Shown: positions 2-5,516 of the stretch, one piece after another | How the letters are laid out: the number at the start of each line of letters is the position of its first letter | Position numbering within the stretch: the first letter of the stretch is position 1 | Source: a virus | Taxonomy: Duplodnaviria > Heunggongvirae > Uroviricota > Caudoviricetes | Length of the DNA: 5,516 bases | Direction: 5' to 3' (one strand) | Virus record (IMG/VR): IMGVR_UViG_2547132420_000006 | Notes under the pieces: model-generated | What the model was told of the DNA's origin: nothing | Seen by the model: only the letters and a program-made list of their open reading frames with translations | Databases searched by the model: none | Program-made: the position numbers and the translations under genes

Positions 2-736
2 ACAGAATCAGCGATTCTGGCGCACGCCCGGCGATGTGCGCCAGCGGAGTCGTGCGGCTTCGTGGTGAGAACGCCGGAGGAGGAAAGATATTTTCCCTGC
101 GTGAATATCTCCGGTGAGCCGGAGGAGTATTTCCGGATGTCGCCGGAGGACTGGCTGAGTGCAGAAATGCAGAGAGAGATTGTGGCGCTGGTCCACAGCC
201 ACCCCGGTGGTCTGCCCTGGCTGAGTGAGGCCGACCGGCGGCTGCAGGTGCAGAGTGATTTGCCGTGGTGGCTGGTCTGCCGGGGGACGATTCATAAATT
301 CCGCTGTGTGCCGCATCTCACCGGGCGGCGCTTTGAGCACGGGGTGACGGACTGTTACACGCTGTTCCGGGATGCTTACCATCTGGCGGGGATTGAGATG
401 CCGGATTTTCATCGCGGGGATGACTGGTGGCGTAACGGTCAGAATCTCTATCTGGATAATCTGGAGGCCACAGGGCTGTATCAGGTGCCGTTGTCAGCGG
501 CGCAGCCGGGCGATGTGCTGCTGTGCTGTTTTGGTTCATCGGTGCCGAATCATGCCGCTATTTACTGCGGCGACGGCGAGCTGCTGCACCATATTCCTGA
601 ACAACTGAGCAAACGAGAGAGGTACACCGACAAATGGCAGCGACGCACACACTCCCTCTGGCGTCACCGGGCATGGCACGCATCTGCCTTTACGGGGATT
701 TACAACGATTTGGCCGCCGCATCGACCTTCGTGTGA
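2..736 (+). CDS. K: Tail tip assembly protein K (gpK-like), MPN/JAMM + NlpC/P60 two-domain protein; 5' end runs off the window
   Basis: Frame 2 is open from position 2 to TGA at 734-736 (ORF track starts it at GTG 62 only because that is the first start-like codon). JAMM motif H-x-H-x7-S-x2-D is encoded at 194-235 (HSHPGGLPWLSEAD), with an upstream E-x-C-G (AESCGF) at 47-58. NlpC/P60-like catalytic Cys in DCYTLF (Cys codon 353-355) and downstream His in NHAAIY (His codon 551-553). Protein closely resembles lambda gpK as I recall it. An in-frame ATG at 137 would give a 199-aa product, matching the lambda K length I remember, so the true start is uncertain. Confidence 0.88.
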   Translation, partial: TESAILAHARRCAPAESCGFVVRTPEEERYFPCVNISGEPEEYFRMSPEDWLSAEMQREIVALVHSHPGGLPWLSEADRRLQVQSDLPWWLVCRGTIHKFRCVPHLTGRRFEHGVTDCYTLFRDAYHLAGIEMPDFHRGDDWWRNGQNLYLDNLEATGLYQVPLSAAQPGDVLLCCFGSSVPNHAAIYCGDGELLHHIPEQLSKRERYTDKWQRRTHSLWRHRAWHASAFTGIYNDLAAASTFV

Positions 737-1283
737 AAACGGGGGCCGAAGCCATCCGGGCGCTGGCCACACAGCTCCCGGCGTTTCGTCAGAAACTGAG
801 CGACGGCTGGTATCAGGTACGCATTGCCGGGCGTGATGCAGGTGAAACCGAATTATCTGCCCGTCTTAATGAGCCGCTGGCAAATGGTGCCGTGATCCAT
901 ATCGTGCCGCGTCTGCCGGGGCCAAAGTGGCGGTGTGTTTCAGGTTGTGCTGGGGGCGGCCGTTATTGCGGTTCTATAGGGAGACCCTTGCGCTGGGGGG
1001 GAGCCATTGGGCGTGTATACGGCATCTGTTTTCTCTCGGTGCCAGTATGATGCTGGGCGGTGTGGCGCAGATGCTGGCACCGAAAGCCAGAACTCCCCGC
1101 ACACAGACAACGGATAACGGCAAACAGAACACCTATTTTTCCTCACTGGATAACATGGTTGCCCAGGGCAATGTTCTGCCTGTTCTGTACGGTGAAATGC
1201 GCGTGGGGTCTCGCGTGGTTTCTCAGGAGATCAGCACGGCAGACGAAGGGGACGGTGGTCAGGTTGTGGTGATTGGTCGCTGA
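634..1283 (+). pseudogene. I: Tail assembly protein I (gpI-like), reading frame disrupted by indels in the central Gly/Ala-rich segment
   Basis: ORF 634-1050 (frame 1) encodes a lambda gpI-like N-terminus (MAATHTLPLASPGMARICLYGDLQRFGRRIDLRVKTGAEAIRALATQLPAFRQKLSDGWYQVRIAGRD...HIVPR). ORF 927-1283 (frame 0) encodes the gpI-like C-terminus (FSLGASMMLGGVAQMLAPKARTPRTQTTDNGKQNTYFSSLDNMVAQGNVLPVLYGEMRVGSRVVSQEISTADEGDGGQVVVIGR). Between about 910 and 1040 gpI-like peptide pieces sit in three frames (frame 2 at 926-976 gives SGGVFQVVLGAAVIAVL then stop), so no single frame gives a full-length protein. The 650-nt span from ATG 634 to stop 1283 is not a multiple of 3. Confidence 0.6.
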
Positions 1284-1343: not shown

Positions 1344-4300
1344 ATGGGTAAAGGCAGCAGTAAGGGGCATACCCCGCGCGAAGCGAAGGACAACCTGAAG
1401 TCCACGCAGCTGCTGAGTGTGATCGATGCCATCAGCGAAGGGCCGGTTGAAGGTCCGGTGGATGGATTAAAAAGCGTGCTGCTGAACAGTACGCCGGTGC
1501 TGGACAGTGAGGGGAATACCAACATCTCCGGTGTCACGGTGGTGTTCCGGGCCGGTGAGCAGGAGCAGACACCGCCGGAGGGATTTGAATCCTCCGGCTC
1601 CGAGACGGTGCTGGGTACGGAAGTGAAATACGACACGCCGATCACCCGGACCATCACGTCTGCAAACATCGACCGTCTGCGCTTTACCTTCGGTGTGCAG
1701 GCACTGGTGGAAACCACCTCAAAGGGGGACCGGAATCCGTCGGAAGTCCGCCTGCTGGTTCAGATACAGCGTAATGGTGGCTGGGTGACGGAAAAAGACA
1801 TCACCATTAAGGGCAAAACCACCTCGCAGTATCTGGCCTCGGTGGTGGTGGGTAACCTGCCGCCGCGCCCGTTCAATATACGGATGCGCAGGATGACGCC
1901 GGACAGCACCACAGACCAGCTGCAGAACAAAACGCTCTGGTCGTCATACACCGAAATCATCGATGTGAAACAGTGCTACCCGAACACGGCACTGGTCGGC
2001 GTGCAGGTGGATTCGGAGCAGTTCGGCAGCCAGCAGGTGAGCCGTAATTATCATCTGCGCGGGCGCATTCTGCAGGTGCCGTCGAACTATAACCCGCAGA
2101 CGCGGCAATACAGCGGTATCTGGGACGGAACGTTTAAGCCAGCATACAGCAACAACATGGCCTGGTGTCTGTGGGATATGCTGACCCATCCGCGCTACGG
2201 CATGGGGAAACGTCTTGGTGCGGCGGATGTGGACAAATGGGCGCTGTATGTCATCGGCCAGCATTGCGATCAGTCGGTGCCGGACGGTTTTGGCGGCACG
2301 GAGCCGCGCATCACCTGTAATGCGTACCTGACCACACAGCGCAAGGCGTGGGATGTGCTCAGTGATTTCTGCTCTGCGATGCGCTGTATGCCGGTATGGA
2401 ACGGGCAGACGCTGACGTTCGTGCAGGACCGACCGTCGGATAAGGTGTGGACCTATAACCGCAGTAATGTGGTGATGCCGGATGATGGCGCGCCGTTCCG
2501 CTACAGCTTCAGCGCCCTGAAGGACCGCCATAATGCCGTTGAGGTGAACTGGATTGACCCGAATAACGGCTGGGAGACGGCGACAGAGCTTGTGGAGGAC
2601 ACGCAGGCCATTGCCCGTTACGGTCGTAACGTCACGAAGATGGATGCTTTTGGCTGTACCAGCCGGGGGCAGGCACACCGCGCCGGGCTGTGGCTGATTA
2701 AAACAGAACTGCTGGAAACGCAGACCGTGGACTTCAGCGTGGGTGCCGAAGGGCTTCGCCATGTACCGGGCGATGTCATTGAAATCTGCGATGATGACTA
2801 TGCCGGTATCAGCACCGGTGGTCGCGTGCTGGCGGTGAACAGCCAGACCCGGACGCTGACGCTCGACCGTGAAATCACGCTGCCATCTTCCGGCACCACG
2901 CTGATAAGCCTGGTTGACGGGCAGGGGAGTCCGGTCAGCGTGGAGGTCCAGTCCATCACCGACGGCGTGAAGGTGAAAGTGAGCCGGGTTCCTGACGGCG
3001 TTGCCGAGTACAGCGTGTGGGGGCTGAAGCTGCCGACGCTGCGCCAGCGCCTGTTCCGCTGTGTGAGTATCCGTGAGAACGACGACGGTACGTATGCCAT
3101 CACTGCAGTGCAGCATGTACCGGAGAAAGAAGCCATCGTGGATAACGGGGCGCACTTTGACGGTAACCAGAGCGGCACGGTGAATGGTGTCACGCCGCCA
3201 GCAGTGCAGCATCTGACCGCCGAAGTCACCGCAGACAGCGGGGAATACCAGGTGCTGGTCCGCTGGGACACGCCGAAGGTGGTGAAGGGGGTGAGCTTTA
3301 TGCTTCGCCTGACCGTGGCAGCGGATGACGGCAGTGAGCGGCTGGTCAGCACGGCCCGGACGACGGAAACCACTTACCGCTTCACACAACTGGCTCTGGG
3401 GAACTACAGGCTGACAGTCCGGGCAGTAAATGCATGGGGGCAGCAGGGCGATCCGGCATCGGTATCGTTCCGGATTGCCGCACCTGCAGTGCCGTCGCGG
3501 CTTGAGCTGACGCCGGGCTATTTTCAGATAACCGCCACGCCGCATCTTGCCGTTTATGACCCGACGGTACAGTTTGAGTTCTGGTTCTCGGAAAAGCGGA
3601 TTGCGGATATCAGGCAGGTTGAAACCACAGCCCGCTATCTTGGTACGGCGCTGTACTGGATAGCCGCCAGTATCAATATCAGGCCGGGCCATAATTATTA
3701 TTTTTACGTTCGCAGTGTGAACACCGTTGGCAAATCGGCATTCGTGGAGGCTGTTGGTCAGCCGAGTGATGACGCATCCGGCTATCTGGATTTTTTCAAA
3801 GGCGAGATAGGGAAAACCCATCTGGCTCAGGAGCTGTGGACGCAGATTGATAACGGTCAGCTTGCGCCTGACCTGGCTGAAATCAGGACGTCCATTACGG
3901 ATGTCAGCAATGAAATCACACAGACCGTCAATAAGAAACTGGAAGACCAGAGTGCAGCGATCCAGCAGATACAGAAGGTTCAGGTTGATACAAATAATAA
4001 TCTGAACAGCATGTGGGCTGTGAAGCTGCAGCAGATGCAGGACGGACGCCTTTATATTGCGGGTATCGGTGCCGGTATTGAGAACACCCCCGACGGCATG
4101 CAGAGTCAGGTGCTGCTGGCGGCACACAGGATTGCGATGATTAATCCTGCAAATGGCAACACAAAACCGATGTTTGTTGGTCAGGGTGATCAGATATTCA
4201 TGAACGACGTGTTCCTGAAACGCCTGACGGCTCCCACCATTACCAGCGGCGGTAATCCTCCGGTATTTTCCCTGACACCGAACGGGCGGCTGACGGCGAA

Positions 4301-4823
4301 AAATGCCGATATCAGCGGTAACGTGAATGCGAACTCCGGGACGCTCAACAACGTCACGATTAACGAGAACTGTCGGGTTAAAGGGAAACTGTCAGCCAAC
4401 CAGATTGAAGGCGATATTGTCAAAACAGTGGGTAAGGCTTTCCCGCGGGACTCCCGGGCACCGGAGCGGTGGCCATCAGGGACCATTACCGTCAGGATTT
4501 ATGACGATCAGCCGTTTGACCGGCAGATTGTTATTCCGGCGGTGGCATTCAGCGGTGCTAAACATGAGAGAGAGCATACTGATATTTACTCCTCATGCCG
4601 CCTGATAGTGAAGAAAAATGGTGCTGAAATTTATAACCGTACCGCGCTGGATAATACGCTGATTTACAGTGGCGTTATTGATATGCCTGCCGGTCGCGGC
4701 CACATGACGCTGGAGTTTTCGGTGTCATCATGGCTGGTAAATAACTGGTATCCCACAGCAAGTATCAGCGATTTGCTGGTTGTGGTGATGAAGAAAGCCA
4801 CCGCAGGCATCAGTATCAGCTGA
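1344..4823 (+). CDS. J: Host specificity protein J / central tail fibre (gpJ-like), 1159 aa
   Basis: Single uninterrupted 3480-nt ORF with ATG start and SD. N-terminal roughly 800 aa is near-identical to lambda J as I recall it ([34 protein letters not shown]...). Contains two tandem fibronectin-III-like segments with typical F-strand motifs ([27 protein letters not shown]). Central and C-terminal parts are divergent. Position between I and lom matches lambda order. Confidence 0.95.
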
Positions 4824-4842
4824 ATTTTATAACCCATATACG

Positions 4843-4867
4843 GGCGCCAGAAATGGCGCCTTTTTTA
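4843..4867 (+). terminator. Rho-independent terminator downstream of J
   Basis: GGCGCC (4843-4848), loop agaaat, GGCGCC (4855-4860; self-complementary arms giving a 6-bp all-GC stem), followed by TTTTTT (4861-4866); sits 20 nt after the J stop codon. Confidence 0.75.
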
Positions 4868-4880
4868 TTGCAGAAAAGCG

Positions 4881-4885
4881 AGAGG
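4881..4885 (+). promoter_or_regulatory. Shine-Dalgarno sequence for lom
   Basis: AGAGG located 5 nt upstream of the ATG at 4891. Confidence 0.6.
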
Positions 4886-4890
4886 TAATT

Positions 4891-5490
4891 ATGCGTAAAG
4901 TTTGTGCAGCCATTTTGTCCGCAGCCATTTGTCTGGCCGTATCCGGTGCGCCTGCATGGGCGTCTGAGCAGCAGGCCACACTGAGCGCAGGGTATCTTCA
5001 TGCCCGTACGAACGCTCCCGGCAGCGATAATCTGAACGGGATTAACGTGAAATACCGTTATGAGTTTACGGACACACTGGGGATGGTGACGTCGTTCAGC
5101 TATGCAGGAGACAAGAATCGCCAGCTTACCCGTTACAGCGATACCCGCTGGCATGAAGATTCCGTGCGTAACCGCTGGTTCAGCGTGATGGCGGGGCCGT
5201 CTGTACGCGTGAATGAATGGTTCAGCGCGTATGCGATGGCAGGCGTGGCTTACAGCCGTGTGTCGACTTTTTCCGGGGATTATCTCCGCGTAACTGACAA
5301 CAAGGGAAAAACGCACGACGTGCTGACCGGAAGTGATGACGCTCGCCACAGTAACACCTCTCTGGCGTGGGGAGCTGGCGTGCAGTTTAACCCGACCGAA
5401 TCCGTGGCCGTTGACGTCGCTTATGAAGGCTCCGGCAGCGGTGACTGGCGTACCAACAGTTTCATCGTTGGTGTCGGTTATAAATTCTGA
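4891..5490 (+). CDS. lom: Lom-like outer membrane protein (Ail/Lom/OmpX family 8-stranded beta-barrel), prophage moron
   Basis: 199-aa ORF with strong SD. N-terminal signal peptide with AxA cleavage motif ([24 protein letters not shown] | SEQQ). C-terminus [23 protein letters not shown] ends in an aromatic beta-signal (terminal Phe) and is nearly identical to the lambda Lom C-terminus as I recall it. Position immediately downstream of J matches lambda. Confidence 0.9.
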
Positions 5491-5516
5491 TTAGCCAGGT
5501 AACACAGTGTTATGAC

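Follow-up and report, generated by a model that had tools for sequence, protein, structure and literature searches.

The tail tip attachment protein of phage lambda, gpJ, consists of hub domains, two FNIII domains, an alpha-helical shaft, a beta-prism central straight fiber and a C-terminal Ig-like domain, and four bottom loops (L1-L4) of its receptor-binding domain insert into LamB (Ge & Wang 2024). Among 1,207 J homologs, residues 960-1132 hold a disproportionate share of the variation, and the tree of this specificity region is strongly incongruent with the tree of the whole protein. Residues 1012 and 1107 of lambda J are specificity determinants, and 1107 is also the site of an indel that defines J lineages (Maddamsetti et al. 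2018). A hypervariable, separately recombining specificity region of J has thus been in print since 2018. The native receptor is LamB for lambda and for phage 21 (phi21), and OmpC for 434 and the WGPS6-like phage phi330, whilst a single J mutation makes phage 21 able to use OmpC. Natural gpJ C-termini have been fused to lambda gpJ at aa 964, and two of the chimeras, A8 and 1A2, have been characterized (Brodel et al., Nature 2024). The J C-terminus sets which outer membrane protein is used, and so sets which E. coli strains are open to lambda-like or Stx-carrying phages.

Here, we analyzed a 5,516-nt stretch of DNA (IMG/VR record IMGVR_UViG_2547132420_000006, Caudoviricetes; the window). A sequence-only reading had proposed that the C-terminal end of its J diverges from lambda J through a modular swap of the receptor-binding domain, and had predicted a receptor other than that of lambda. 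Our analysis ties the allele in the window to existing experiments. The earlier inference was sound, though ordinary: published papers and PDB-linked engineering work already cover the phenomenon, the allele family and its receptor, and no new biology is involved.

Results

Gene J and its place in the tail module

The open reading frames and their Pfam domains identify the window as the distal portion of the tail module of a lambdoid phage, with the order K - I - J - lom as in lambdoid phages (Table 1). RefSeq annotations under the match concur with this order. The best match of the whole window among complete E. coli genomes was 96.8%, and its matches in the plasmid collection were confined to prophage-like records, at no more than 96%. 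A 160-nt piece of the receptor-binding region had no exact match in the genome_contigs collection. The Pfam domains of J follow the order of lambda gpJ (FNIII-A_GpJ, Phage-tail_3, Ig_J, Ig_J_second, Phage_Tail_Tip, Ig_GpJ_C), each scoring well over its cut-off, and the product is a lambda-type tip attachment protein. Translation of positions 4374-4823 returned exactly the peptide quoted in the sequence-only reading, 149 residues plus stop, at the 3' end of the intact gene.

J F952 (window 4197-4199), in the motif QIFMNDVF, is the counterpart of lambda J F924 and is kept. Lambda J F924 is required for triggering HepS, a prophage-encoded abortive-infection nuclease that Gifsy prophages evade with an Ile at this position. 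Going by its sequence, the J in the window would be a HepS trigger.

Table 1 Features of the window discussed in the text. Loop positions are predictions from a monomer model.
Feature	Window position	Strand	J residues (aa)	Remarks
K-like protein, NlpC/P60 plus JAB	62-736			Upstream of J; Pfam
Gene I homolog (tail assembly protein)	634-1283			Upstream of J; frameshifted
Gene J, tail tip attachment / host specificity protein	1344-4823	+	1-1159	Single intact ORF, 1159 aa
FNIII-A_GpJ			86-207	Pfam
Phage-tail_3			330-498	Pfam
Ig_J			610-714	Pfam
Ig_J_second			716-818	Pfam
Phage_Tail_Tip			872-1000	Pfam
Variant block, alpha-helical shaft and upper central fiber	3789-4058	+	816-905	27-28 aa longer than lambda
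Conserved island, lower central straight fiber	4168-4373	+	~942-1010	86-90% nt to lambda (90-nt windows)
Divergent C-terminal receptor-binding module	4374-4823	+	1011-1159 plus stop	43% aa to lambda
Ig-like receptor-binding domain proper	4428-4820	+	1029-1159	Pfam PF12421 Ig_GpJ_C
Putative loop L1	4437-4478	+	1032-1045	Between model strands 39-45 and 60-68
Putative loop L2	4554-4580	+	1071-1079	GAKHEREHT
Putative loop L3	4647-4655	+	1102-1104	LDN
Putative loop L4	4737-4772	+	1132-1143	Aligns with lambda residue 1107 region
Terminator-like hairpin and T-run	4842-4871	+		Between J and lom; hairpin 4842-4861
lom-like outer membrane protein gene	4891-5490	+		Pfam Ail_Lom 396.6 bits, full length

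Divergence of J from lambda

We aligned the J proteins of the window and of lambda (NC_001416) and counted identities per 50-aa block. Across aa 1-800, each block holds 44-50 of 50 residues identical to lambda J (~97% aa identity). Aa 801-900 fall to 22/50 and 14/50, and the window J is 27-28 aa longer there. Aa 951-1000 hold 46/50, and the last three full blocks hold 28/50, 22/50 and 17/50. The claimed divergence of the C-terminus was borne out, with 43% identity over the last 149 aa (43.2% over the last 147 aa by tblastn). Compared with lambda J aa 965-1132, the receptor-binding module is 42.7% identical at the protein level, and hence is not near-identical to the LamB-binding module. Mismatches read off the lambda J protein alignment number ~86 in 150 aa at the C-terminus versus ~24 in 800 aa (Fisher p ~3e-58).

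At the nucleotide level, blastn similarity to lambda stops exactly at 4373 and none was detected by blastn in 4374-4820. Past 4373, 90-nt windows drop to 0.44-0.57 identity with lambda. The conserved island to the left of this boundary is flanked on both sides by sequence that falls to 0.57-0.64 nt identity with lambda. Within the island, the block 4201-4373, which had been described as conserved, differs from lambda in 6 of 57 residues (89% identical). The motifs that had been singled out in the divergent part as reminiscent of lambda (DIVK, FPR, WPSGT, DDxPFDRQIV, DMPAGRG and GIS) are residues common to both proteins in the alignment. Further upstream, nucleotide homology to lambda is lost at 3840 and is back at 4010. 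The variant block around this gap, 3789-4058, matches phage 21 and PhiR55_1 at 98% nt identity, and forms a second mosaic block of J upstream of the receptor-binding module. If helical, the longer shaft would make the central fiber roughly 4 nm longer.

Module exchange in J

The backbone and the receptor-binding region of J resemble different phages. Over the backbone (1344-3788), nucleotide identity is 94.8% to lambda, 95.6% to phage 21, 95.8% to PhiR55_1 and 77.4% to VT1-Sakai. Over 4374-4820, it is 94.9% to PhiR55_1 and 93.1% to VT1-Sakai, and phage 21 aligned in just two short fragments (74-87% nt). Because the backbone and the receptor-binding region give incongruent nucleotide similarities, recombination is required, and the modular swap suggested by the sequence-only reading is upheld: the backbone is lambda-like, but the domain is like that of VT1-Sakai, whose own backbone is distant.

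VT1-Sakai (Sp15, E. coli O157:H7) and 1A2 belong to the same allele family as the window and share its module length and left junction. VT1-Sakai differs by eight substitutions in the module and in its backbone, whereas in the window the module is carried by a lambda/phi21-like backbone that has the long alpha-helical shaft. Phage 21 J has a similar backbone and the same long shaft variant, but its Ig-domain core is replaced relative to the window and its module is 64% aa identical. Compared with phage 21, the replaced core spans ~4440-4780 (0.42-0.65 nt identity), and the breakpoints vary by comparator. Homologs of the C-terminus in the databases range almost without gaps between 96% and 54% identity, which indicates repeated exchange within the module. 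The island at 4168-4373 is likely to be the recombination junction on the left of the module, and it is the same junction (lambda aa 964) as in the functional gpJ chimeras of Brodel et al.

Fold and putative loops of the receptor-binding domain

The Ig-like domain at the end of J scores 130.3 bits against the PF12421 Ig_GpJ_C profile (gathering cut-off 26.2), with profile positions 1-135 of 135 covered. AlphaFold2 predicted an all-beta domain for window J aa 987-1159, with a mean pLDDT of 83.4. The top Foldseek hits of this model in the PDB were 9wcb, 9wca, 8xck and 8xcj (TM 0.71-0.72, E 3e-20 to 2e-17), and the next unrelated fold had a TM of 0.39. The first two entries are the open state of the A8 gpJ 713 central tail fiber with OmpC G17 of E. 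coli EDL933 (9wcb) and the closed state of A8 gpJ (9wca); the other two are the closed state of the lambda fiber (8xck) and the lambda gpJ713-LamB complex (8xcj). Because these matches are solved gpJ domains, the divergent region is a receptor-binding domain in which the fold has been kept. This structural check on the sequence-only reading matched the predicted fold to domains that bind LamB (lambda gpJ) as well as OmpC (A8 gpJ).

Receptor-facing loops were placed from strand alternation in the monomer model, rather than from coordinates of a complex, with lambda residues 1012 and 1107 as landmarks. The putative loops L1-L4 occupy model positions 46-59, 85-93, 116-118 and 146-157. L1 aligns with the region of lambda residue 1012 and its placement on the "bottom" face is a prediction; it is highly variable among homologs, with 7/14 residues identical to lambda and 14/14 to VT1-Sakai. 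L2 is the most variable stretch in 25 homologs (mean entropy 1.62), with 2/9 identical to lambda and 8/9 to VT1-Sakai. The corresponding values are 0/3 and 3/3 for L3, and 3/12 and 12/12 for L4. In total, 37 of the 38 putative loop residues are identical to VT1-Sakai, 19 to phage 21 and 12 to lambda. In the model, the shared motifs FDRQIV, NG, DMPAGRG and KK..GIS sit in strands and fiber-side loops.

The lambda J domain (8xck, 8xcj) shares its architecture, fold, core and fiber-proximal motifs with the window, but is unlike it in overall identity, in the putative loops and in its LamB receptor. A8 gpJ belongs to this domain family as well and folds alike (Foldseek TM 0.71, E 3e-20); it has the lambda aa 964 junction and binds OmpC. 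It is only 62% identical to the window over the last ~150 aa and, set against the window protein, lacks 4 aa in L1 and has 5 additional aa in L2.

Probable receptor, from the 1A2 module

We located the "GpJ 1A2" DNA in the supplement of Brodel et al. (2024) via lambda J 5' DNA, and read it with a custom frameshift-tolerant protein-DNA alignment. The sequence was machine-read from the PDF with frameshift errors, and 6 residues were unreadable. The supplement labels were verified on the neighboring "GpJ A8", which reads the same as PDB 9wca "A8 gpJ 713". No stretches of window DNA were found in this supplement, and the 1A2 insert differs at many synonymous sites. The proteins are nearly identical: across the 173-aa segment from N987, 155 of the 167 readable positions agree between 1A2 and the window, and over the last ~150 aa 1A2 is ~92% (91.6-93%) identical to the window and 97.2% to VT1-Sakai. 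We assigned modules to the same type at an aa identity of at least 90% over the swapped module together with the same loop lengths. The window module is 96.0% identical to PhiR55_1, 94.6% to VT1-Sakai and 91.6% to the machine-read 1A2, with no indels, and is hence of this type.

OmpC alleles were supplied on plasmids to MG1655 without lamB and ompC, and with 20 of the 23 a GFP payload from 1A2 particles reached 76-99% of cells at the highest dose. The permissive alleles include G17, the EDL933 allele, and delivery was at most 2% with OmpC G1 (K-12), G2 and G40 (Brodel et al. 2024). Because delivery varies with the OmpC allele in cells without lamB, 1A2 is OmpC-dependent, allele-specific and LamB-independent. 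Unlike the 1A2 type, A8 accepts K-12 OmpC as well. Our reading of the 1A2 receptor draws on the main text of Brodel et al. (2024) and on G17 in their Extended Data Fig. 1. In the source table for Extended Data Fig. 2 of the same paper, panel C (OmpC-EDL933) repeats the 1A2 and A8 values of panel B (OmpC-MG1655). The repeated values contradict Extended Data Fig. 1 (G17) as well as the main text, and are probably a copy error.

Comparison with J proteins of known receptor placed the window J closest to the VT1-Sakai/1A2 type, which is linked to OmpC. The earlier prediction of a non-LamB receptor gains support by way of the ~92%-identical 1A2, which works without lamB and depends on OmpC alleles. 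From this relationship, the receptor of the window J is probably OmpC, and the K-12 OmpC allele is probably not accepted by the window module. K-12 is not given as host in any of the 57 phage records with the allele, and those of them that are PhiR phages were grown on E. coli C or ECOR13, which together are weakly consistent with this assignment. The allele is also carried by 2G7b (94.6%), whose source paper and supplements name K-12 and C as indicator strains and do not specify which one was used for 2G7b.

Divergence from lambda alone does not predict a new receptor, because the phage 21 domain is only 45% identical to that of lambda and yet uses LamB. Sequence identity is likewise an imperfect guide to the receptor, because the modules of phage 21 (LamB) and A8 (OmpC) are 81% identical and one J mutation lets phage 21 use OmpC. 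The J of 434 (as in the lambda h434 hybrid) and the WGPS6/phi330 type carry an alternative natural module at the same position that targets OmpC; it is ~41% identical to that of the window, differs in loop lengths and forms a separate allele family. Phage phi330 was considered as direct evidence for OmpC and set aside, since it belongs to this WGPS6/434 type.

Proposed explanation and alternatives

The best explanation as a whole, which we hold with good confidence, is that a widespread alternative module was recombined onto a lambda/phi21-like J and docks OmpC. Region 4374-4823 encodes the bottom of the central straight fiber and the Ig-like domain, trimerizing at the tail tip. The module is an allele of the "Sakai Sp15 / PPompW / PhiR55_1 / 1A2" type, other than the LamB-binding one of lambda, and homologous recombination in the fiber segment at ~4168-4373 joined it to the lambda/phi21-like backbone. 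The four variable loops most probably dock onto the trimeric porin OmpC in many of its natural alleles, probably not that of K-12. If the lambda-LamB and A8-OmpC pairs are a guide, docking would push the three domains apart and trigger opening of the tail and ejection of the DNA. The data presented here show the gene, its domain family and fold, where the mosaic blocks end, the recombination, how widespread the module is, and how nearly identical it is to characterized 1A2; OmpC binding by the exact allele in the window, the contacting loops and the triggering mechanism are what we infer.

A divergent C-terminus could also arise by accelerated point mutation in place, with no module exchange, and the J specificity region is known to be under diversifying selection (Maddamsetti et al. 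2018). Against this, nucleotide identity to lambda falls within ~30 bases from 86-90% to undetectable, synonymous sites included, and the same region is 93% identical to VT1-Sakai despite a 77% J backbone. The abrupt nucleotide boundary and the incongruent similarities rule out divergence in place, which we regard as extremely improbable. Exchange of the module would still be compatible with LamB as the terminal receptor, as in phage 21, whose native receptor is LamB and whose module is 64% identical to that of the window and 45% to that of lambda; the fold is common to LamB and OmpC binders, so distance from lambda leaves room for LamB. The much closer relative 1A2 (~92-97%), however, works without lamB and is switched on or off by the OmpC allele supplied, and of the 38 putative loop residues VT1-Sakai shares 37 and phage 21 only 19. 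We therefore consider continued use of LamB quite improbable.

Two further alternatives accept the module type. The differences between the window and VT1-Sakai, 8 in 149 residues (K1013L, I1025L, I1052V, R1076K, K1090R, R1118H, S1129A and S1157T), might alter specificity toward other OmpC alleles, possibly that of K-12, or toward a porin such as OmpF. The receptor range of J moves with one to four substitutions in lambda and phage 21, R1076K sits in putative L2, the most variable loop, and the near-continuum of homologs suggests ongoing fine-tuning. Most of the differences are conservative, however (I/L, I/V, R/K, K/R, S/A, S/T), and seven of the eight lie outside the putative loops, R1076K being the only one within. 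We judge an altered specificity relative to 1A2 and VT1-Sakai to be unlikely. That R1076K as the main candidate, perhaps with the longer shaft, shifts the OmpC allele range or the porin, and makes the window J a naturally retuned variant, would be a long shot. The alternative that carries the most weight, although still on the unlikely side, is that the prophage is defective and the module a relic, with no present role in infection and uninformative on current host range. Compared with intact homologs, gene I has small indels that split it over two reading frames, and many homologs of the C-terminus are truncated or frameshifted, with VT1-Sakai J itself annotated as truncated by mutation. On the other hand, J in the window is uninterrupted and each of its domains exceeds its Pfam threshold, the gene I indels lie in G/C runs and could be assembly errors, and intact modules of defective prophages can still be transferred to other phages by recombination.

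Prevalence and use of the allele family

The 450-bp region has matches in 3,569 of the 5,426 complete E. coli genomes searched, in a median of two places per genome. At a nucleotide identity of at least 90% it was found in ~3,250 records, or about 60% of the complete E. coli genomes; the best match is at 98.9%. The phage collection has 57 records with the region at an aa identity of at least 88%, most of them long-tailed Stx and PPompW phages. Phages with the allele include VT1-Sakai, the PPompW prophages, many long-tailed Stx1a and Stx2a phages, JLK-2012, 2G7b and six PhiR phages (ECOR collection). Identity to the window module is ~60-64% for the phi21/A8 type, with 88 records in the 60-80% band, 43% for lambda and ~40% for the 434/WGPS6 family.

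The allele family is thus among the commonest in E. coli prophages, and it is already in use in engineered lambda particles for gut gene delivery. Recognizing it permits a receptor call from sequence, namely OmpC and probably not the K-12 allele. A retuned receptor-binding variant, if true, would be useful in engineering delivery particles.

J C-termini in E. coli genomes are often broken or poorly assembled. Among the database matches to the C-terminus, the homologs P0025, P0035, P0061 and P0106 are frameshifted or fusion artifacts, and many others are short fragments at contig ends.

Genes flanking J

Lambda I aa 1 to ~95 are found in ORF 634-1050 of the window, and aa 139-223 (98% identical) in another frame, in ORF 927-1283. 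Compared with intact I genes, the window has a 2-nt deletion, a 1-nt deletion and ~5 extra bases (near 923, 990 and 1005). The split gene I is either a pseudogene of a decaying prophage or the product of assembly errors in G/C runs. A prophage with a frameshifted gene I may not make infectious tails.

Downstream of J, a consensus scan found a hairpin with an 8-bp stem containing 6 G-C pairs, followed by TTTTTATT. Phage 21 has a terminator annotated at the same place after J. The next gene is annotated under its RefSeq match as "Ail/Lom family outer membrane beta-barrel protein", and lom after J is the normal lambdoid context. This lom-like gene is itself a mosaic: its similarity to lambda lom is only patchy, at 71-85% nt, and VT1-Sakai and PhiR55_1 match it at 86-88%. 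An odd match is that of the lambda h434 hybrid, which aligns at 88% with the 3' end of J together with lom (window 4664-5516).
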